This document shows positions 25,148-36,096 of a DNA stretch of 54,835 bases, one piece after another. Below the pieces are notes generated by a model. It was not told where the DNA came from. It did not search any database and was given only the letters and a program-made list of their open reading frames with translations. Position numbers and translations under genes: made by a program. This DNA comes from Candidatus Methanophagales archaeon. Its GTDB lineage: Archaea > Halobacteriota > Syntropharchaeia > Alkanophagales > Methanospirareceae. The first letter of the stretch is position 1; every line of letters starts with the position of its first letter. The DNA is taken from contig WSZT01000164.1 in NCBI GenBank assembly GCA_013139985.1, forward strand, positions 1 to 54,835, given 5' to 3'.

Positions 25148-26146
25148 ATGAAACACGAACAAGAGATAGAGCAATTGAATTCGCAGGCACGTGCATACTC
25201 GTCCAAATTAAATGATACCCTAAACGAACTAAAAAGAGTTATTGTCGGTCAGGAACTAGTATTGAGTAAATTGCTGATCTGCCTTATCGCCGAGGGGCAT
25301 GTTCTTCTTGAAGGTGTGCCCGGTCTGGCGAAGACATTAATGGTAAAGACGTTATCAGATACAGTATCAGCGCAATTCTGCCGTATTCAATTCACCCCGG
25401 ACCTGCTGCCTGCGGACATTACCGGAACGAAGATCTATGACCACCGGACAGCGAGCTTTAGCACGCAAAAAGGGCCCATCTTCAATAATTTCATTCTCGC
25501 CGATGAGATAAACCGGGCACCACCAAAGGTGCAATCCGCTTTGTTGGAAGCCATGCAGGAGCGGCAGGTGAGCATACAGGGCGAAACGTTCATGCTAGAT
25601 CGCCCGTTCCTGGTTCTGGCAACACAAAACCCCATAGAGACCGAGGGCACATACAAACTACCGGAAGCTCAAGTTGATAGATTCTCGTTTAAGCTGCTGG
25701 TTGACTACCCGAATAAGGACGAGGAGCGGGTAATAATCCAGCGGAATACGCAGGGTATTGTGCTAGCACCCGGTAAAGTCCTTACTGCTGGGGATATAAT
25801 CGAAATGCAACAGTTTAATCAAAAGATTTATGCCGATGAGAAGATAGAGGAATATGTTACAGAACTTGTAGATGCAACGAGGTATCCTGAGAATTATACG
25901 CTGGGGAGGGATATTAATGGTCTGATCGAGTACGGAGCTTCGCCAAGAGCGTCTATATGGTCTATTCTTACCGGTAAAGCGCACGCATTACTAAATGGTC
26001 GTGGCTATGTTATCCCTGAAGATATTAAAGCGGTCGTACATGATGTGCTCAGGCATCGTATAATTCTGACCTATGAAGCCGATGCAGAGGGCATTACTTC
26101 TGACCATATTATTGATATGCTTGTTGCGAATATCAAGGCGCCGTAA
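25148..26146 (+). CDS. MoxR-family AAA+ ATPase
   Basis: Contains VIVGQELVLSKLLICLIAEGHVLLEGVPGLAKT, ILADEINRAPPKVQSALLEAMQE and ATQNPIETEGTYKLPEAQVDRF. Confidence 0.9.
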   Translation: MKHEQEIEQLNSQARAYSSKLNDTLNELKRVIVGQELVLSKLLICLIAEGHVLLEGVPGLAKTLMVKTLSDTVSAQFCRIQFTPDLLPADITGTKIYDHRTASFSTQKGPIFNNFILADEINRAPPKVQSALLEAMQERQVSIQGETFMLDRPFLVLATQNPIETEGTYKLPEAQVDRFSFKLLVDYPNKDEERVIIQRNTQGIVLAPGKVLTAGDIIEMQQFNQKIYADEKIEEYVTELVDATRYPENYTLGRDINGLIEYGASPRASIWSILTGKAHALLNGRGYVIPEDIKAVVHDVLRHRIILTYEADAEGITSDHIIDMLVANIKAP

Positions 26147-26298: not shown

Positions 26299-27882
26299 AT
26301 GAAAGCAGAACCAAAAGCGCTAACGGCATCTGAGAACAAGGTTTTGCTCGCTATCGCGGACGAGAAGAAGGTGTGCGATCCGATCCGACTATCAAAAGAA
26401 ACGGGCATAAATGTCGATGCCGTGATGCAAACGGCATTCATGCTCGCTCAGGACGGGTTATGCGAGATAAAAGAGACGCATGAGGATTATTATCGGCTAA
26501 CTGGGGAGGGGGAGACGTACGTCGAGCAAGGCTTGCCGGAAAAGAGAGCGCTTGCGTTCTTGATTGACAAGGGACGTGCAACAGTTGACGAACTCCAATC
26601 CTTTTTCGATGATGATAAGGAATCGAAAATAGCGATAAATTGGCTTTTGCGGAACAAATGGACGAAAATCGATAAAATAGGCGACGAACGGCTATTAATG
26701 CCTATAATAACACTGGACGAGTTGTCATCTGACGTTAGTGAAGCGATACTGCGAATTGTTAATGCTGGTGAAACCGAGAGAAAAGTATTAGCAGAAGCGG
26801 TCACAAAAGAATTCAGCGCAGCGGCAATAAATGACTCTTTGACGCTATTGAGTTCGCGGAGTTTGTTAGAGTCCTACTCACGTGTAAATAGGGTAATAGC
26901 GATAACAAAAGCGGGCAAAGATACTTTAACACAGCTTACTCAAACACATACTAAAACCTTTTCTGCGGATGTAATCCTCGTTGAGGAGAAGATAACGCAG
27001 CTCACACCTGAACTCATAAGAACTGGCTCATGGCGAGCTCAGAAATTCAAGACATATGATGTGAATCTACCCTCAAAAGCAGTTTACCCTGCGAAGATAC
27101 ATCCATATCAGCGTATTTTAGACTCTATGAGACGGATTTTCACTGAGATGGGGTTCGTAGAGATAAAAGGCGAACTTGCTCAGAGCGCGTTTTGGAATTT
27201 CGATGCGTTATTTGTGCCGCAGGACCATCCAGCGCGAGAGATGCAGGATACCTTCTATCTGGCGAGAAGAAAGCCTATAGACGCACCCAAAGAATTGATA
27301 GAGAATGTGAAGCAGATGCACGAGCATGGCGGCTCGTTAAATTCCACAGGCTGGGGTGGCAAGTGGGAAAGCGAGTTAGGTGAGGAGATATTGCTGAGAA
27401 CGCATACCACTGCTGTTACGTTGCAGTATCTGGCATCGCATCCCAAGCCGCCGGTTAAGGTCTTCTGCATTGACCGAGTTTATCGTCGTGAGACTATTGA
27501 TCCAACGCACATACCGGAATTCGACCAGTTGGAGGGCATTGTCATGGACAAGGGCGTAACATTCAGCCACTTGCTTGGCTATCTCGCAACATTCTACAAT
27601 AAGATGGGGTTCCCTTCTATACGGTTCCGGCCGGGTTATTTCCCTTATACCGAGCCGTCAGTGGAGGTGGAAGTCTATATGCCCGAAAGAGGATGGATCG
27701 AACTGGGTGGTGCGGGTATATTCCGAGAGGAGGTAACGAATCCAATAGGCGTGAAATATCCGGTTTTAGCATGGGGGCTTGGAATTGGCCGATTAGCTAT
27801 GCTTAGTTTGGGGCTGACCGATATACGTGATTTGTATCGCTCGGATATAGAGTGGTTGAGGCGGGCGAGGGTCGTTCGGTGA
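26299..27882 (+). CDS. pheS: phenylalanine--tRNA ligase alpha subunit (archaeal type)
   Basis: Contains HPAREMQDTFY, LLRTHTTAVT, FRPGYFPYTEPSVEVEV and GAGIFREEV, the class II motifs. Confidence 0.9.
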   Translation: MKAEPKALTASENKVLLAIADEKKVCDPIRLSKETGINVDAVMQTAFMLAQDGLCEIKETHEDYYRLTGEGETYVEQGLPEKRALAFLIDKGRATVDELQSFFDDDKESKIAINWLLRNKWTKIDKIGDERLLMPIITLDELSSDVSEAILRIVNAGETERKVLAEAVTKEFSAAAINDSLTLLSSRSLLESYSRVNRVIAITKAGKDTLTQLTQTHTKTFSADVILVEEKITQLTPELIRTGSWRAQKFKTYDVNLPSKAVYPAKIHPYQRILDSMRRIFTEMGFVEIKGELAQSAFWNFDALFVPQDHPAREMQDTFYLARRKPIDAPKELIENVKQMHEHGGSLNSTGWGGKWESELGEEILLRTHTTAVTLQYLASHPKPPVKVFCIDRVYRRETIDPTHIPEFDQLEGIVMDKGVTFSHLLGYLATFYNKMGFPSIRFRPGYFPYTEPSVEVEVYMPERGWIELGGAGIFREEVTNPIGVKYPVLAWGLGIGRLAMLSLGLTDIRDLYRSDIEWLRRARVVR

Positions 27883-27959
27883 TGGGTGGCCGGCTTGACT
27901 TGCATCTTCACAATTTATAGTGAAAATTGAAAAATACCAAAGAAGCAAGTTTTAATCGC

Positions 27960-30281
27960 TTATTCAGTGTTTTTATATGGACAGGCATCAGCAAATTTTA
28001 CAATATCTTCTCCGGAATTGTCCATAATACTAATATTCCACACATCGCGGTAGAAGTTTTTATGGGATTGAAATATCTTAACGGGAACCCCCTGTGATAC
28101 ACAAATGCCTGCCAAAAACATGAGTTGAGCATCGTGCATCTTATTATCGTTTGATCCTCTCTGCACACCCGCTAAATTAACTAACACCGCCCGAGCATTT
28201 ATTAGACTTTCCGCTAATCCCTCAGGAATAAAACATTGATCCAATATGTTAATAGCCACTTTTGTATAGCTGTACCTTTCCGTCAGTTTTCTTACCAGTT
28301 CTGTTTCATGATTAAATGACACTACATAAACTTCATTACTTTTATCCCTATCGTTTGGCGAATTAAAGTTATTAATATGCTTAAAAACTCTAGGTACCTG
28401 GTATAAATCGTTGATTTTATTATTGTTAAACTTTTCAGTTTTCCACCCTAATTTATCTGGGATTTCATCGACTGTTTGGTAGCTTTTATACAGTTGTTCT
28501 CCAAGTTTAGCTTTAATATCCTCAGATTTATCATCACATAAGAAAACAACCCTCCTTCCTAGTCCAAGAGCAAAACCGCATTCAAAAAATACGTTTGGAT
28601 TAAAATCTGATACTTCAGCGAGCATCCATAAATTTCTGAATACCTTTGGGCATACTTCATCACATAATACTCGACCCGTTTCTAGCTTCTCGGGCGTCGT
28701 CCACTTATCGGGCTCTACAGCAAGATTAAGCTTTTTAAGTTTGTTACCTAACACCTCAACAAACTCCTTTTTGCTAGCGGACGATGCCAAAAAAACGCCT
28801 CGTTTATTTAAGAACCGATCAGTACTACAGACACGATAAATAAAACTACAGTACCTGTCTGTTCTATAAATTCTTGGATTCTTCCATGGACGTCCATCAC
28901 CAACTATAGTTCTTGGATTAATGTGGTACGGTGCACCTTCCTTCATCTTTTTCCTCTCCCTGATTAGAGAATTAAGAATAGGATGAATTAGGTAAAAATC
29001 AGAGACTGGTAAGATCTTAGATTCAAAAATCTTGTCTCCGGGCCGCTCAAACTTTTGAATAATATTACCATTTTCTTCATCAATATCAACATAACCTAGT
29101 AATCCTACTTTATACAAATTGCAAAAAACATGATTTTTTTCACAGTTTTTCTGGTTGTTATATGTGCTGCATATTCCCTTTATTTCACTTTTGCTAAGTA
29201 TATCTGAATCTATTAAGTCGAACAATTCATCAAAAGGCCTAATAAAATCTAAAAAAGGTTTAGTTTCTGCTAGATATGTCCGCGCGATTGTTGTTGCTTC
29301 CCTGTTGACCACGGATCTTATATTTACTTCTGTCCGTTCATTGGGATAAATAGCAGCTAGAGCGCCCCCAATGACCATAAAATCTCTAGGTCGTTTTAAG
29401 GTATGACGATAAATATAGTCAAAAATATCCTCTTTTTGATTGTCAACTCGTGCATTTGCTATTTTGTTATCGCTTAACCCCAAGAAGGCGTAAATAAGAT
29501 CTTCATTAATAAAATTGGCGTTGACGAGGTCTTTCTTATTCATTCGTTTAATATTTTTTTCAAAGATGTCTTTTAGTTCTGATTTAGTATATCCAATATC
29601 TAATGCGCTTCCTTTTTTTTGCAATCCTATGGGATCATTTCTCAGTAATCTCTCCCACGCTTCTTTTCTAATAGATGCAAAAACTTTTATATGGCTGCTT
29701 TGTCCAGATAAAACCCAGATAGCATTGATTAATCCAATTTGAGCATTATACCAGAGTTCTGAAGATAAAACTCCTGTAACACTAGACCTTTCACCGTGTT
29801 GTCCTAAATGACCTCCAAAATATTCATCCACATTATCAATAAAAATTGCGACACCAGAACGAACTCGATTTAGGATCGAGGTTAGTCTATATTGTTTTCT
29901 TGCAATTTTAATGATACTGCTATGACTACGATCTAAAATATTTGTGAGATATCCAAAAGGTGTAACAAGCTGAGGGTCATTTACCATCTCGAGAATTTCG
30001 TCAGGAAGACTTCCAATCACTTTATTCAGTTCTTGTTCCTTTTCTTTATCCCCTTTCCGTTCATAACTTATTTTAAGAGTCTTAATGACGGACAAAGAAA
30101 TAGATAATAACCAAATATTGGTCCAATATTCAATGTTTCCTAATGCCTCTATTGTTTCAAAACTAAAGGTAAAAGCTTGTTGGGCTCTATCTAATGGCTC
30201 ATCCTTATGGATGAAATATATCTCCTCTTCTTGTAAATCTTTCTTATGTTTTTTTTGGTAGATGTATCGCTTATACATCAA
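27960..30281 (-). CDS. STAND/NACHT-like NTPase body (Walker B onward) with tandem C-terminal TIR/NDT-like Rossmannoid domains; lacks its own Walker A
   Basis: The 773-aa ORF lies in a visibly A+T-rich block. Walker B-like VAIFIDNVDEYF is followed by IKVFASIRKEAW. C-terminal motifs are GVFLASSASKKEF..NVFFECGFALGLGRRVVFL and VYVVSFNHE..LMFLAGICVSQGVPVKIF. Confidence 0.7.
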   Translation of the reverse strand: MMYKRYIYQKKHKKDLQEEEIYFIHKDEPLDRAQQAFTFSFETIEALGNIEYWTNIWLLSISLSVIKTLKISYERKGDKEKEQELNKVIGSLPDEILEMVNDPQLVTPFGYLTNILDRSHSSIIKIARKQYRLTSILNRVRSGVAIFIDNVDEYFGGHLGQHGERSSVTGVLSSELWYNAQIGLINAIWVLSGQSSHIKVFASIRKEAWERLLRNDPIGLQKKGSALDIGYTKSELKDIFEKNIKRMNKKDLVNANFINEDLIYAFLGLSDNKIANARVDNQKEDIFDYIYRHTLKRPRDFMVIGGALAAIYPNERTEVNIRSVVNREATTIARTYLAETKPFLDFIRPFDELFDLIDSDILSKSEIKGICSTYNNQKNCEKNHVFCNLYKVGLLGYVDIDEENGNIIQKFERPGDKIFESKILPVSDFYLIHPILNSLIRERKKMKEGAPYHINPRTIVGDGRPWKNPRIYRTDRYCSFIYRVCSTDRFLNKRGVFLASSASKKEFVEVLGNKLKKLNLAVEPDKWTTPEKLETGRVLCDEVCPKVFRNLWMLAEVSDFNPNVFFECGFALGLGRRVVFLCDDKSEDIKAKLGEQLYKSYQTVDEIPDKLGWKTEKFNNNKINDLYQVPRVFKHINNFNSPNDRDKSNEVYVVSFNHETELVRKLTERYSYTKVAINILDQCFIPEGLAESLINARAVLVNLAGVQRGSNDNKMHDAQLMFLAGICVSQGVPVKIFQSHKNFYRDVWNISIMDNSGEDIVKFADACPYKNTE

Positions 30282-30445
30282 AAAAGGGTTTTTCCGATAC
30301 CTTTTGGAGCAACGGCAAAATACATATTTTCTCTCTCTTCAGACTCAATAAATTCCTTTATGGCGGGCGTTATGACTAAATCCTCCGACGGATTTAGCTC
30401 CCCAACTTCGCCAATCCTTATCGCATCAACAATCCAAGGTTTCAT
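30278..30445 (-). CDS. 55-aa ORF carrying the Walker A (P-loop) that belongs to the downstream NTPase; separated from it by a frameshift
   Basis: Translation is MKPWIVDAIRIGEVGELNPSEDLVITPAIKEFIESEERENMYFAVAPKGIGKTLF*. The stop overlaps the ATG of the 773-aa ORF inside a T6 run (minus strand). Adding one T gives ..GIGKTLFLMYKRYIY.. in frame. Confidence 0.6.
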   Translation of the reverse strand: MKPWIVDAIRIGEVGELNPSEDLVITPAIKEFIESEERENMYFAVAPKGIGKTLF

Positions 30446-30559
30446 TTTATATTTCTCCTTATTTTCATCAATTTGTCGTGTGGGATAGTTTTATCAAAAT
30501 GTCGTATAAAATGGTCTTATAGCGGATGTTTTATATATAACTTTCGATTTTTTTTTGAT

Positions 30560-30587
30560 CAAACTTTTTTTTTGAAAAAAAAGTTTG
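30560..30587. terminator. perfect A/T-run palindrome downstream of the archease gene (candidate terminator or hairpin)
   Basis: Two 13-nt perfect inverted arms, CAAACTTTTTTTT and AAAAAAAAGTTTG, are separated by TG and flanked by a further T-run. The site lies about 55 nt past the archease stop. Confidence 0.35.
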
Positions 30588-30640
30588 CTGCGTAAGCCTT
30601 TTTCGGTAAAGCCTCTAAATTTTCTTTAGAAAAAGGGTTT

Positions 30641-31066
30641 TTAGACATCTAAAACGACTCTTGCCTTCCAAACCTCATTCTTCTTTACCTCCATCATGTT
30701 ATAGGTGACCGCTTTTATTATTATGCCGGATACATGTTTTGAGGGGTCGAATTTACCACCTTTGCATGTTCCCTGTATACTGAAATTGGATTCGTCTATC
30801 GCTATGTCAAAGGATCTCATAACTAGCGATTTCGAGTCAAACAAAAAAATCAGCTCGTCCAGCCAATCAAACATCAAGCTATAAAGGTCTTCGGAGTTTA
30901 TCTCTATTTCTCGCTCCTCCGCCCCCTCTATTTCGTCTACATCGGTCATGAGACTGTACATGGCAATAGCGGCATTAGCATAAAGCTCCTCTAACGTGTC
31001 GCCATACACCTCAAATCCGACATCCGAGGGATGCTCGATATATTTTATTTTCTCTTCTCGGTTCAT
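30641..31066 (-). CDS. archease (RtcB tRNA-ligase cofactor family)
   Basis: 141-aa ORF. Contains YIEHPSDVGFEVYGDTLEELYANAA and KAVTYNMMEV..ARVVLDV. Confidence 0.9.
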   Translation of the reverse strand: MNREEKIKYIEHPSDVGFEVYGDTLEELYANAAIAMYSLMTDVDEIEGAEEREIEINSEDLYSLMFDWLDELIFLFDSKSLVMRSFDIAIDESNFSIQGTCKGGKFDPSKHVSGIIIKAVTYNMMEVKKNEVWKARVVLDV

Positions 31067-32816: not shown

Positions 32817-34610
32817 CTAGATCGGGAGGTAGAATGGTTCTCGATCTAGACGATGAAGGATGTAGTCAGCGTCGGGGTATTTTTCTAATATTTTGTTTTT
32901 AAATTCCTCCGCTTTATCTAAGCTATAAAAAATCCTTCCTACTTCCACTAATGCTCTATCATTTCTACGCCTTAAAGCCTCATTTAGCATCATATTTAGT
33001 CTCTTATCCGCTTCTTCTAATCTCCCTAACCTCTTCATTACGTTAAAATATACAGATGGTTTTTCATCAAAAAGTTTTTTTTCTGTAACCCCACCGTCAT
33101 CAAGCAGTTCTAGCATTTCTTGCAACGTACCTGCTTTGAATTTGAACATAACTTCTACTTTTTTCACTCGTAAGGATATATCCATATCAATAATATCAGA
33201 ATAATTCTCGAATAATTCCATAGCATCTTCAGGACGCTCCTTCTTAATATAAATATCGAGAATTTCTCCAAGAATTTCACTTTTTTCTTTAATCACGTCT
33301 AAAAGTCGAAGATAGTGCTCTAAAGCCATTTCCGATTTATCATACTTCTTATACGCTTCAGCTAATCTCCTCTCAACTGCAATCATATCCTCGGGATTTA
33401 ATTCGAGATATTTTTCTACTATTGCTAATTCAAACTCTGGCTCTTCCCGAGAGGATAATTCCCAGTTCATAAAAAGAGAAACGTATTTTGATAGTGTCTT
33501 AGGATTGTCAATTCCAAAAGTCATCCATAAGTCTTGAAATGCACCTAATATCTTTTTCCTCCCAGCATTGCGGAGGATATAGAAATCTATGAGCGTTTCA
33601 AGACTTTTTGGGTGCGAATAAGTTAGCACCAGTCCTTCCAATTCCTCTTGTGCTTTATCCGGATGGTCTAACAGGTTAGCAGTGATTTCTTTTAGGATAC
33701 TGTCAAGTTTTGGTACAATAACAGTATTAGGTATGATTTTTGAAAACAGTATTAGATAATCCCGTAATAAATGTGTTTCTTTAGTAACCCCTTCCTCGCC
33801 TATTCTCAAGGACTCTGATAATTCCAATTTTCTATCAGAGTGAAGTATACAAATATCCTGAACATTTAACTGGCTCTCTAAATCTTCTACTGGCTCGTTT
33901 AGAAAATGTTGTATATCCCCTATTATTTGCCTTTCTATTACTTTATCTTTTTCTTCTTCTGGAAAAGGAATACGGGTAAGCGCAAAAGTTACCCCTATTG
34001 GCTTTTGTCCGGGCAATCGTTCAACTGCCTGGATACTGCGGAGTATCTGACGTGCGCCCTCAATATTTTCTCGATTGTTGACGATTAGAAACACTACTTT
34101 GTCAGGCAAAAGGGACGTGCATAAACCGCTCATCTCTGTTACGCCTGTTCTGGAATCTATAAGTAGAAAATCAGGGTTAAATTCTTTCCTTATTCTCTCC
34201 TTTAGTTCAAGAAAGAAAGGGAGACCTTCGCTGTATTCTTCATAAAACAATTTGTGCCAATTTATCGCTGCTAATTTTCGCCAATAACCTGCAGAAAGGA
34301 CATCACCTGCGGGAATCAATCGGATTTCGCCCTGGGTTTTTGATGGATGAATAAGTTCCAATGTAAATTCATCTAATGATTCTGGAATGACTTTATTATG
34401 CATAAATTCAGATATGTAGTCCACCAAACCCTTCCTAATATCTGTTGTTTTGACGAGTTGTGGGAATTTGTAATGAAGTCCAGGCGCCTCTAAGTCGAAG
34501 TCCATAATGCAAACATTTTGACCAAAGCGGGAAAGATAAATCGCAATGTTCGCTAAAGCTAATGTGCGTCCAACCCCTCCTTTATATGAATAGAAAGTTA
34601 TTGTTTCCAT
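32817..34610 (-). CDS. KGGVGR-variant ParA/MinD-like (SIMIBI) ATPase fused to a TPR-like helical-repeat C-terminal half
   Basis: Contains ITFYSYKGGVGRTLALANIA, a deviant Walker A with Arg in place of the usual Lys. Also MDFDLEAPGL and FLLIDSRTGVTE (Walker B). The C-terminal roughly 300 aa are helical and repeat-like. Confidence 0.8.
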   Translation of the reverse strand: METITFYSYKGGVGRTLALANIAIYLSRFGQNVCIMDFDLEAPGLHYKFPQLVKTTDIRKGLVDYISEFMHNKVIPESLDEFTLELIHPSKTQGEIRLIPAGDVLSAGYWRKLAAINWHKLFYEEYSEGLPFFLELKERIRKEFNPDFLLIDSRTGVTEMSGLCTSLLPDKVVFLIVNNRENIEGARQILRSIQAVERLPGQKPIGVTFALTRIPFPEEEKDKVIERQIIGDIQHFLNEPVEDLESQLNVQDICILHSDRKLELSESLRIGEEGVTKETHLLRDYLILFSKIIPNTVIVPKLDSILKEITANLLDHPDKAQEELEGLVLTYSHPKSLETLIDFYILRNAGRKKILGAFQDLWMTFGIDNPKTLSKYVSLFMNWELSSREEPEFELAIVEKYLELNPEDMIAVERRLAEAYKKYDKSEMALEHYLRLLDVIKEKSEILGEILDIYIKKERPEDAMELFENYSDIIDMDISLRVKKVEVMFKFKAGTLQEMLELLDDGGVTEKKLFDEKPSVYFNVMKRLGRLEEADKRLNMMLNEALRRRNDRALVEVGRIFYSLDKAEEFKNKILEKYPDADYILHRLDREPFYLPI

Positions 34611-34622
34611 GATGAAACCACC

Positions 34623-35249
34623 TTAACAGCCCACGGGTAATATTTGCCCCCTCACAGCGATTTGTTTTTGATGCTTTTTTATAGCATCTATTGGATATGT
34701 GCTCTCTACGCCGAGAAATCTATCCTTCCACGTTTCTTCTTGATTATCTCTTATCTGATTTTCTAATTCTCTCAGTTTTTCTCTCTCCTCTTTACAGTTT
34801 TCAAGAATATCAATCGCCATTTTTTGCATTTCGGGATTCCGCATTACCTGTTCTAATTTCATTAAATCAATAGTCACGGACTCAGCCGCATCAAGTTTTC
34901 CTTCAGGAATCAACTCTCTTTTAGCTCTCTTAAGATATTCTAACAGCACATCATCAGTAGCATATTTCAACCCTTCTCGCAATTTCTCAAAAGATGGTAA
35001 CTCAATACCTTGAGTTTTTTTTGTTTCAATATATGCCTCTTTGAGAAATTTGACTGTTTCGTTTATGCTATTAAGACTAATAGCACACTCTTCAAAGCCA
35101 TATGAATGAATGGCCTTTGATAAGTCTTTTATTGAAACTTCAATCTGATCTGAAGTAGTATAGGGCGGTCGTAATAAAAATAATTTTTCCTCTTTTTCAA
35201 TAAACCCCCATCCATCCTTTGGAGCGGTGGCCATGATCTTAATTTCCAT
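34623..35249 (-). CDS. hypothetical helical protein, middle gene of the three-gene operon
   Basis: 208-aa ORF. It overlaps the upstream gene by 11 nt and ends 12 nt before the ATPase gene. A Glu/Lys-rich coiled-coil-like segment lies near the C-terminus. Confidence 0.55.
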   Translation of the reverse strand: MEIKIMATAPKDGWGFIEKEEKLFLLRPPYTTSDQIEVSIKDLSKAIHSYGFEECAISLNSINETVKFLKEAYIETKKTQGIELPSFEKLREGLKYATDDVLLEYLKRAKRELIPEGKLDAAESVTIDLMKLEQVMRNPEMQKMAIDILENCKEEREKLRELENQIRDNQEETWKDRFLGVESTYPIDAIKKHQKQIAVRGQILPVGC

Positions 35250-36096
35250 TTTCGTCTATTACCTCCACTCGAATCCCTTGGTTATGTAAAAGATCACGCA
35301 TATTAATAAAATCCTCTAGCCAATATCTTTCTTCAGCATCTGATAATTCAGAAATGATGGCTTTATATAAGTCATTCTCGAAACGATTTAAAACACTTTT
35401 CCTCATTCGTACACTCTCTATATGTATATTTTTGATTTCGCCTTTCGTTATAGCTTCAATATAACATTCATTGCTACAGATCATAGATGCCAATTCATCA
35501 AAAGGAATTCCTCCTATTTCATTTTCGTGTTTAAGAGCTACCAAAGCAGGTACACATTCTCTATTTGCAGTATCTCGAGATAACCGTTCAACGTTCACAG
35601 AATTTTCTTCGACATATTTGAGACTATCCTCTTTAATGAATGCTAACGATGAATATTCTTTTGATTGTTTTCGTTTAATTATAACACAATATTCTCCGAA
35701 CTTTTCTGGACCGAATCCTCCGATGTTTAAAGCACCATACTTAAATTTTTCAGCACATTCAAAGGTGCTATTAAAAATCTTCCTCTCTTTTTTATGGTTT
35801 TTTAATTGCAAATCCATTGCAGTTTCATATGATATTCCTATTTTTCTTTTGCCCTTTAACTCTTCTATTCTTTCCTTTGTAACTTCATATCGGTTTTTAT
35901 ATACCCCTTCAATTAAAAAACTAATTAATACCCCTTGCCTAATATTTATCGAAATAGTCGGTTTATTCCTCATAAAGTCAATAAAATTTTTAAATATATC
36001 TAAATTATTTTGATTCTCATGCTTCTCTTTCAATAACTTATGTCGGGTTTTTAGATTATCCGAATTTTGATCTGCCATATCAAATATGTTCTTCAT
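35239..36096 (-). CDS. hypothetical protein, first gene of the three-gene operon
   Basis: 285-aa ORF with no motif I can assign. A conserved-looking core is KYGALNIGGFGPEKFGEYCVIIK..SLAFIKEDSL. A TATA-like TTTATAAA lies about 40 nt upstream, near 36134-36142. Confidence 0.55.
   Translation of the reverse strand: MKNIFDMADQNSDNLKTRHKLLKEKHENQNNLDIFKNFIDFMRNKPTISINIRQGVLISFLIEGVYKNRYEVTKERIEELKGKRKIGISYETAMDLQLKNHKKERKIFNSTFECAEKFKYGALNIGGFGPEKFGEYCVIIKRKQSKEYSSLAFIKEDSLKYVEENSVNVERLSRDTANRECVPALVALKHENEIGGIPFDELASMICSNECYIEAITKGEIKNIHIESVRMRKSVLNRFENDLYKAIISELSDAEERYWLEDFINMRDLLHNQGIRVEVIDENGN

Follow-up and report, generated by a model that had tools for sequence, protein, structure and literature searches.

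The 54,835-nucleotide (nt) contig WSZT01000164.1 of a Candidatus Methanophagales archaeon (assembly GCA_013139985.1), which in its whole length is here called the window, carries at 27960–30445 on the minus strand a gene whose P-loop has been cut off by the loss of one T from a homopolymer. The gene is likely to be a naturally inactivated, decaying allele of an accessory locus, the intact form of which (~836 amino acids, aa) would combine an ATPase with a domain resembling nucleoside 2-deoxyribosyltransferase (NDT) in a one-protein defence system that has been lost repeatedly. A sequence-only reading of the same DNA had proposed a STAND-like NTPase with tandem TIR/NDT-like C-terminal domains, split by a single-base frameshift, and hence a freshly inactivated defence gene, an assembly error or a phase-variable gene. 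That interpretation was partly right: the gene is a single one, broken by a frameshift, and has an NDT-like effector and a probably defensive role.

One gene split between two open reading frames

Two open reading frames (ORFs) meet at a run of six T (T6) at 30280–30285 on the minus strand. The upstream ORF, 55 aa long (30278–30445), holds the Walker A motif and ends in ...VAPKGIGKTLF and the stop. The larger ORF lies in the -1 frame at 27960–30281 and encodes 773 aa from a TTG, or 772 aa from an ATG at 30276–30278; the TGA of the short ORF (30280–30278) shares one base with this ATG. Adding one T to the run gives a continuous frame of 828 aa, ...GIGKTLFLMYKRYIY..., the translation of which is referred to below as the fused protein. 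This anatomy, first described by the sequence-only reading, was confirmed on the minus strand, and the Walker B strand and the KVFASIRKE element that it had pointed out are likewise present. Walker A and Walker B are on separate ORFs in the window and on one polypeptide in alleles with seven T (T7). The features of the locus are as follows, all on the minus strand.

30446..30640, minus: upstream intergenic region, with a palindrome and TATA-like and AAGGAG elements read from the sequence
30278..30445, minus: 5′ gene fragment, residues 1–55 of the ancestral protein, with a TGA from the frameshift; aligns with ortholog N-termini
30287–30310, minus: Walker A, APKGIGKT, in the 55-aa ORF
30280..30285, minus: T6 homopolymer (T7 when intact), codons 54–56, CTT TTT TTG = L F L, directly after the Walker A Thr
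27960..30281, minus: remainder of the gene, comprising the rest of the ATPase, a putative helical/winged-helix part and both C-terminal domains
30249..30256, minus: A8 tract 1, codons 63–65, Q K K; A9 in L044 of a sister lineage and in 14 near-identical contigs
30207..30209, minus: codon 80, CCT to CAT, Pro to His (substituted base 30208); Pro in every aligned ortholog
29823..29849, minus: Walker B strand AIFIDNVDE; F202, D204 and D207 near-invariant in 93 homologs
29661–29687, minus: KVFASIRKE strand, sensor-1-like by its presumed role
29613..29620, minus: A8 tract 2, LQKKG, codon 276 of the intact allele; A9 in L044 (lineage 2) and L045 (lineage 3)
29382..29408, minus: RHTLKRPRD motif; R348, R353, P354 and R355 (P0002 numbering) invariant in 93 homologs; role presumed
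29121..29174, minus: remnant of a Cys/His cluster, C-x10-C-x4-C-x2-C-x4-H-x2-C in the intact allele
28407..28808, minus: C-terminal domain 1, fused residues ~547–680, predicted NDT/DNPH1-like fold
28557–28610, minus: domain 1 motif SDFNPNVFFECGFALGLG, with the codon of the invariant Glu622 at 28581–28583
27963..28349, minus: C-terminal domain 2, fused residues ~700–828, predicted alpha/beta (flavodoxin/Rossmann-like)

A search of 5.8 billion proteins found ~20 full-length relatives (34–75% identity), each a single protein covering 97–100% of the fused query, and the junction is unbroken in every aligned ortholog that reaches the N-terminus (consensus APKGxGKTLFLxYKR). Environmental contigs near-identical to the window carry T7, which yields an intact ORF of 836 aa. 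Since the orthologs are continuous over the junction and near-identical contigs have T7, the ancestral state is, on sequence comparison, one ORF. The claim of one gene split by a single-base homopolymer change is thereby borne out; the orthologs, had they consistently encoded two ORFs, would have spoken against it, and all full-length ones are continuous.

The family assignment follows the NCBIfam model NF047389 ('P-loop ATPase, Sll1717 family'), which has a curated cut-off of 75 bits. The fused protein scores 81.9 bits over profile positions 18–450 of 454, and the 772-aa ORF alone 60.9 bits with position 68 as the first matched (positions 1–67 missing). The intact allele, P0126, scores 80.2 bits, and P0002, a 75%-identical ortholog, scores 65.9 bits and falls under the cut-off. 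Among GTDB species-representative genomes no close ortholog with the full architecture was found, only distant relatives of the ATPase or relatives limited to the NDT motif. Two relatives, P0008 (921 aa) and P0005 (870 aa), have an additional C-terminal extension beyond domain 2 that starts ...LDRDPRADALESKARSLIANQEY.... For annotation, the two ORFs are better treated as a single pseudogene, a frameshifted Sll1717-family ATPase that has an NDT-like domain, than as two hypothetical proteins.

The T6 allele and its further lesions

Allele states were read from assembled contigs in public datasets. Contig L003 (SRR10097247) is 100% identical to the window, T6 included, while L004 (JGI 3300005100) has T6 on another haplotype, and the exact 55-aa product recurs in one Logan contig and one JGI contig. 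T7 with the intact 836-aa ORF (P0126) is found in L005, L006 and L007 (SRR18936873, SRR19174373 and SRR29278622); T7 is also present in L001, L002 and all contigs of the A9 allele described below, and L008 (SRR18936874) carries T8. Ten other coding tracts of at least 6 nt (one A8, several A7 and T7) are constant across seven near-identical contigs, which argues against generic homopolymer sequencing error. Judged from these assemblies, the split is real and not a one-off assembly slip.

The window allele has also been damaged outside the T run. An in-frame deletion of 24 nt at ~29144, between two 10-nt direct repeats TGTGAAAAAA, has removed KRDCKKCE and with it two Cys that are each at least 90% conserved in orthologs. 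In addition, the C-to-A change at 30208 has replaced Pro80 by His. Both changes are confined to the window and L003, whereas L004 combines T6 with a nonsense change (TAT to TAA). In view of these further lesions on the two haplotypes, the T6 alleles look like dead genes that are still decaying. Among the three fates that the sequence-only reading had allowed, an inactivated defence gene fits best, but with two more lesions the inactivation is not a fresh one.

An allelic series across three lineages

Three A/T tracts of the gene vary in three lineages of anaerobic methanotrophic archaea of group 1 (ANME-1), as T6/7/8, A8/9 and A8/9, on backgrounds that are otherwise identical. Fourteen contigs, L033–L039 included, match the intact allele save for A9 in place of A8 at codon 64. 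Intact alleles exist in lineage 2 also (P0134 and P0139), beside the following damaged ones from lineages 2 and 3.

L044 (SRR26901930), lineage 2, ~90% nt identity: A9 both at codon 64 and in A8 tract 2
L045 (SRR13892601), lineage 3: A9 in A8 tract 2
L001, lineage 2: 28-nt deletion within the NDT motif
P0136, lineage 2: 33-aa in-frame deletion; Walker A and both 5′ tracts gone

Further family members are split at other points. Clusters of pheS, rpoA′ and nuoF from the same organisms, which served as a control, were near-uniform in full length. The T7 tract and the first A8 are present in orthologs at 85–90% nt identity and absent from a distant one. By a synonymous shuffle of its codons, the intact allele is expected to have 4.1 runs of at least 7 nt and has 6 (P = 0.17); for its first 300 nt the expectation is 0.6 and the observed number 2 (P = 0.034). 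From these counts, the homopolymer tracts would largely be those expected of an AT-rich, Lys/Phe-rich gene. The allele data fit recurrent loss through slippage. A series of homopolymer alleles across populations was beyond the reach of the sequence-only reading. In uncultivated methane-oxidising archaea, such an allelic series offers a rare natural view of the loss or switching of genes of this kind.

The ATPase half

By its profile match, the N-terminal half is assigned to the Sll1717-family P-loop ATPases. An AlphaFold2 (AF2) model of P0002, built with 93 homologs, had a predicted local distance difference test score (pLDDT) of 89.6 and a predicted template modelling score (pTM) of 0.82. Its best Protein Data Bank (PDB) match in Foldseek was Orc1/Cdc6 (2qby_A; 527 aligned columns at probability 1.0), with ClpC and TnsC next in rank, and the top 50 PDB matches included no NLR, Apaf-1 or Avs structure. 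The NACHT, NB-ARC and AAA_16 Pfam models gave no match at E <= 0.1 in 25 orthologs. In the model, the ATPase fold resembles Orc1/Cdc6 AAA+ and not NACHT or NB-ARC. The NACHT/STAND-like label of the sequence-only reading is accordingly replaced here by Sll1717-family P-loop ATPase, and 'STAND-like' would hold as a functional analogy.

Conservation in the ATPase is seen in Walker A, Walker B (hhhhDNVDE), the KVFASIRKE strand and a Cys/His cluster in a winged-helix-like region, RHTLKRPRD being the most conserved stretch of the family. In the P0002 model the ATPase is succeeded by helices and a small beta-hairpin, and the frameshift interrupts the helix next to Walker A. The N-terminal part of the intact protein would also include a lid. 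A literature search for Sll1717 found no functional study of Sll1717-family ATPases, searches for the run and sample accessions returned no paper, and a 2026 survey of STAND proteins mentions neither NDT nor the Sll1717 family.

The C-terminal domains

An AF2 model of residues 533–828 (pLDDT 82.8, pTM 0.87) contains two alpha/beta domains. The best PDB matches of domain 1 in Foldseek were DNPH1/Rcl and the CMP N-glycosidase BcmB (probability 0.97–1.0, target TM 0.57–0.72, E ~1e-2), and domain 1 is modelled as an NDT/DNPH1 fold. The Pfam model PF05014 is matched below threshold in 14 of the 25 orthologs, with a best E of 9.9e-5. Domain 1 contains the motif D614-x-N616-P-N618-V619-F-F-E622-x-G624, in which D614, N618, V619, E622 and G624 are invariant. 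E622 would stand where NDT-type enzymes (NDT and DNPH1) carry their nucleophile; going by the Pfam-aligned segment, it may be the equivalent of the catalytic nucleophile.

Resemblance to TIR is fainter. The TIR models PF01582 and PF13676 have no match in the fused protein, nor has PF13271. PF10137 (CAP12/Pycsar TIR-like) matches weakly in 6 of the 25 orthologs and also in distant relatives of the C-terminal module, and profile comparison with PycTIR (8jsj) gave E = 1. Domain 2 has Leu at the position of the domain 1 Glu, and its ortholog profile found no Pfam or PDB sequence match. PDB sequence searches with the C-terminal region, the full ortholog profile and the profiles of domains 1 and 2 returned nothing meaningful. 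When the ortholog profiles of the two domains were compared in hhalign, E was 0.027 over 19 columns in local mode and 0.12 in global mode, which is non-significant, and a C-terminal tandem repeat was dropped for that reason. The tandem TIR/NDT-like domains of the sequence-only reading therefore survive in part. The structure check placed domain 1 on the NDT side (DNPH1 and BcmB), but domain 2 lacks the Glu and has no significant likeness to domain 1; both of the Rossmannoid motifs that had been quoted as copies are present, but the profiles give them no repeat relation. A Foldseek comparison of the C-terminal model with BFVD was uninformative, with only glycosyltransferase-like matches of low TM and high root-mean-square deviation.

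An exhaustive search of 1.84 billion representatives returned 141 relatives, where a word-indexed search with the C-terminus gave 6 proteins. In some relatives the two-domain module is carried also by LRR, REC or AAA_16/ORC-like proteins, and domain 1 occurs alone with GAF domains.

Genomic setting and mobility

The gene stands alone between archease (30641–31066) and the 3′ end of pheS (26299–27882), both of which are housekeeping genes. Hydrogenase genes adjoin one of the orthologs. Among the products of genes near it in the window, PheRS-alpha, RNA polymerase A′ and a NuoF-like protein belong to 90%-identity clusters named ANME-1 or Methanophagales. The GC content of the gene is 35.6% as against 43.3% for the whole window, with a sharp step at both gene ends (0.34–0.38 inside, 0.41–0.51 outside). 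An empty site was found in contig L041 (AHKK01009930.1), where positions 399–1441 correspond to window 27883–30640 and archease and pheS are separated by a gap of 263 nt that holds no gene. The L041 spacer contains a tandem repeat whose translation reads SPITHHP several times; a related 7-nt CCCGTCT repeat occurs in L037.

Compared with contigs of another strain, the window has 1 substitution across the 2.5-kb gene, while there are 10 substitutions in 312 nt of the pheS 3′ end and 4 in ~400 nt of archease. Given this one substitution against the many in the flanks, the gene looks like a recently spread accessory insertion. The tract that is near-identical between the strains spans ~3 kb (27853–30811; one substitution and the indel lesions), with flanking pheS and archease differing by ~1–4%, and suggests that ANME-1 strains have recently exchanged the gene by transfer or recombination. 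A search of IMG/VR found no homolog of the ATPase, so a viral origin is not supported.

Upstream of the gene, the TATA-like TTATATATAA at 30531–30540 and an AAGGAG at ~30455–30460, ahead of the ATG at 30445, were read from the sequence and make a putative promoter region. A T8-C-A9 palindrome (AAAC T8 C A9 GTTT) at 30565–30580, 3′ of the archease stop, is probably a terminator; its A-run near 30565–30573 varies, with A9 in L003 and the window but A8 in the other contigs. In L037 (positions 1–700; JGI 3300040951), an empty-site-like archease, terminator and pheS 3′ copy are joined, between CCCCAAACTAAG and TTGGGGAG, to ~codon 13 of a gene of the A9 allele. The hybrid join leaves this gene without promoter and start, and reflects either a true rearrangement or a chimera made in assembly.

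Elsewhere in the window, a MoxR-type AAA+ ATPase (AAA_3, AAA_lid_2, bpMoxR) is encoded at 25148–26146 on the plus strand, directly upstream of pheS. A second low-GC stretch lies at 32817–36096 on the minus strand (0.34–0.36 at 33000–34000). It encodes a 597-aa MinD/ParA-like ATPase, with AAA_31 and CbiA matches at the N-terminus only, followed by ORFs of 208 and 285 aa without a Pfam match, and may be another accessory block.

A candidate one-protein defence system

Homologs of the ATPase carry TIR (16 proteins), DUF4062 (11), methyltransferase, PIG-L, PNP, CHAT, kinase or deaminase domains. TIR, PNP, CHAT and deaminase, the four whose positions were checked, all follow the ATPase on its C-terminal side, and PADLOC effector models recognise them. 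The swapping of C-terminal effectors (TIR, DUF4062, PNP, CHAT) suggests a defence gene. DUF4062 has been shown experimentally to be a TIR-like NADase and abortive-infection effector that is related to TIR and NDT (bioRxiv 10.64898/2026.05.01.722283). Swarozyc is not equated with the gene described here, as its auxiliary domain is not described as an ATPase (bioRxiv 10.64898/2026.05.01.722283). The family shows hallmarks of NTPase-plus-effector conflict systems, namely swappable effectors, presence/absence polymorphism, low GC and near-identity in diverged strains, and one ortholog, P0018, alone sits among type I restriction-modification (RM), helicase-PLD and HicB genes. By analogy with such systems, the protein may be a one-polypeptide defence or conflict system.

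In the mechanism that we propose, the ATPase would sense a trigger and then switch or oligomerise, and the NDT-like module would arrest the infected cell by hydrolysing the N-glycosidic bonds of NAD+ or nucleotides. We propose that the gene is costly, which would account for the empty site and for null alleles being so frequent; it would be lost repeatedly, mostly by slippage in the A/T runs of an AT-rich, Lys/Phe-rich sequence. In the window, as the allele comparison shows, replication slippage has shortened T7 to T6 directly after Walker A and cut off the P-loop, and the same haplotype afterwards lost the 24 nt with two conserved Cys and gained Pro80His.

Several observations weigh against this account. 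The link of the Sll1717-ATPase family to defence is one that we infer. PADLOC-DB 2.0.0 matches neither the fused protein nor P0002 and contains no model of the ATPase, so that the PADLOC run suggested by the sequence-only reading came back empty. The PF05014 match of the fused protein (residues 617–642; 18.8 bits, E = 0.0018) is under the Pfam gathering threshold of 28.8. No TPR, WD40 or LRR repeat sensor region is present, the C-terminus being modelled as two alpha/beta domains. The neighbours of the window gene and of P0020 are housekeeping genes, and the many single-lesion alleles on identical backgrounds also fit a reversible switch.

Alternative explanations

The alternative that survives best, possible if on balance unlikely, is adaptive phase variation, in which the 5′ T7 and A8 tracts form a reversible ON/OFF switch that maintains both immune and non-immune cells, the window being OFF. 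The phase-variable gene of the sequence-only reading is supported to this extent: T6/T7/T8 and A8/A9 alleles occur on backgrounds otherwise 100% identical over 2.7 kb, and neighbouring runs of one series differ (T7 in SRR18936873, T8 in SRR18936874). The same tracts have slipped independently in three lineages, T7 and the first A8 are retained at 85–90% nt identity, and the first 300 nt are enriched in long runs. Furthermore, 5′ poly(A/T) tracts have been argued to be general inactivation switches in bacteria and archaea (Orsi et al., PMC2831843). However, the number of tracts over the whole gene is not above the composition-matched expectation, the mid-gene A8 slips too, and many alleles are deletions. 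Both T6 haplotypes have additional, irreversible lesions, and L044 has two frameshifts; lesions of this multiple or irreversible kind, present in several alleles, count against a switch. A bolder version, in which a single-protein archaeal immune system of an Sll1717-type ATPase and an NDT-like N-glycosidase is toggled by A/T-tract slippage in wild ANME-1, is unlikely. If true, a defence gene of uncultured archaea would be turned ON and OFF in the manner of a contingency locus, with the T6/T7/T8 and A8/A9 alleles on identical backgrounds as the direct view of it.

It is also unlikely that the protein is not immune at all, but rather an ATP-regulated enzyme of nucleotide salvage or signalling, or one whose NDT-like module is a ligand sensor, dispensable and drifting to loss. 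NDT and DNPH1 relatives are metabolic enzymes, the neighbours are housekeeping genes, REC and GAF signalling domains are among the other partners of the tandem module, and the ATPase lacks a PADLOC model. Set against this are the fusions of the same ATPase to TIR, DUF4062, CHAT, PNP and deaminase domains, those checked being C-terminal and matched by PADLOC effector models, together with the presence/absence polymorphism, the low GC, the near-identical sequence in diverged strains and the RM, helicase-PLD and HicB neighbours of one ortholog.

A sequencing or assembly error, with T7 as the true sequence and an intact gene, is very improbable. Although homopolymers are classic sites of error and the window resembles a metagenome-assembled contig, the independent Logan assembly L003 is identical to it, T6 included, and a JGI contig of another haplotype (L004) has T6 as well. 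Seven contigs agree in the lengths of the A8, A7 and T7 tracts elsewhere in the gene, and two further lesions of the window lie outside homopolymers. The assembly-error option of the sequence-only reading has thus lost most of its ground.

Programmed recoding or coupling, whereby a -1 slip on C-TTT-TTT-GA or re-initiation at TGATG would give a functional full-length or two-piece protein, is the least probable of all: a -1 shift does restore the frame, the P-site TTT can slip back by one base with perfect re-pairing while the A site is occupied by a stop codon, and the TGA/ATG overlap resembles translational coupling, but orthologs and near-identical alleles simply have one ORF, the slip site departs from the canonical X XXY YYZ heptamer, and two conserved Cys would still be missing from the product, which would also retain P80H. 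A perfect 7-bp hairpin (GAUGUAU AAGCG AUACAUC; 30261–30279, minus strand) directly follows the T run, with a z of -3.4 for the 90-nt fold. It was rejected as a frameshift stimulator on its spacing, as it begins 0–1 nt past the run and inside the A-site codon, and because the palindrome is altered in L002, a 75% ortholog. As the modelled break lies inside the helix after Walker A, complementation between two pieces is unlikely to give a working enzyme.

Comparison with known systems

The frameshift itself is ordinary; moderate novelty attaches to the gene family and to its population genetics in ANME-1. Tracts of 7–8 nt, two of them near the 5′ end, with length alleles on identical backgrounds, are as in homopolymeric phase variation (PMC2831843). 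Examples of such phase variation are the 5′ poly(A) of Listeria monocytogenes inlA and the 7C tract of Mycobacterium tuberculosis glpK; the tracts here lie within an ORF and have +1 and -1 length alleles. As a point of difference, many alleles of the ANME-1 gene have multiple or irreversible lesions, and tract enrichment beyond composition is non-significant.

Within its own family, the N-terminal ~490 residues match the 454-position NF047389 model end to end. Methanosarcina members of ~527 aa carry the family name at NCBI, and the named members are bare ATPases of ~520 aa. Relative to these, the clade described here is divergent in sequence and adds a 300-aa C-terminal NDT-like tandem module.

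With the NDT superfamily (NDT, DNPH1/Rcl and BcmB; PF05014), domain 1 has in common the predicted fold and a conserved acidic motif with an invariant Glu. It differs in being fused to an ATPase and to a second alpha/beta domain that does not look catalytic. With regard to the TIR-like NADase effectors (CAP12/Pycsar TIR and DUF4062/Swarozyc), the ATPase is joined to DUF4062 or TIR in sister architectures, whereas the structural matches of domain 1 favour NDT/DNPH1 over TIR.

The differences from Avs, bNACHT and TIR-NLR systems lie in the lack of a NACHT, NB-ARC or AAA_16 match, in Orc1/Cdc6 as the best fold and in the lack of a TPR, WD40 or LRR sensor. The effector of the gene here is C-terminal, unlike that of Avs, which is N-terminal. 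Like those systems, it would place on one polypeptide a P-loop NTPase, here with a putative helical and winged-helix-like part, and a swappable effector. It is thus a candidate for a new defence family without an entry in PADLOC-DB 2.0.0, with a nucleotide-directed effector of NDT type and an ATPase nearer to Orc1/Cdc6 than to NLRs.

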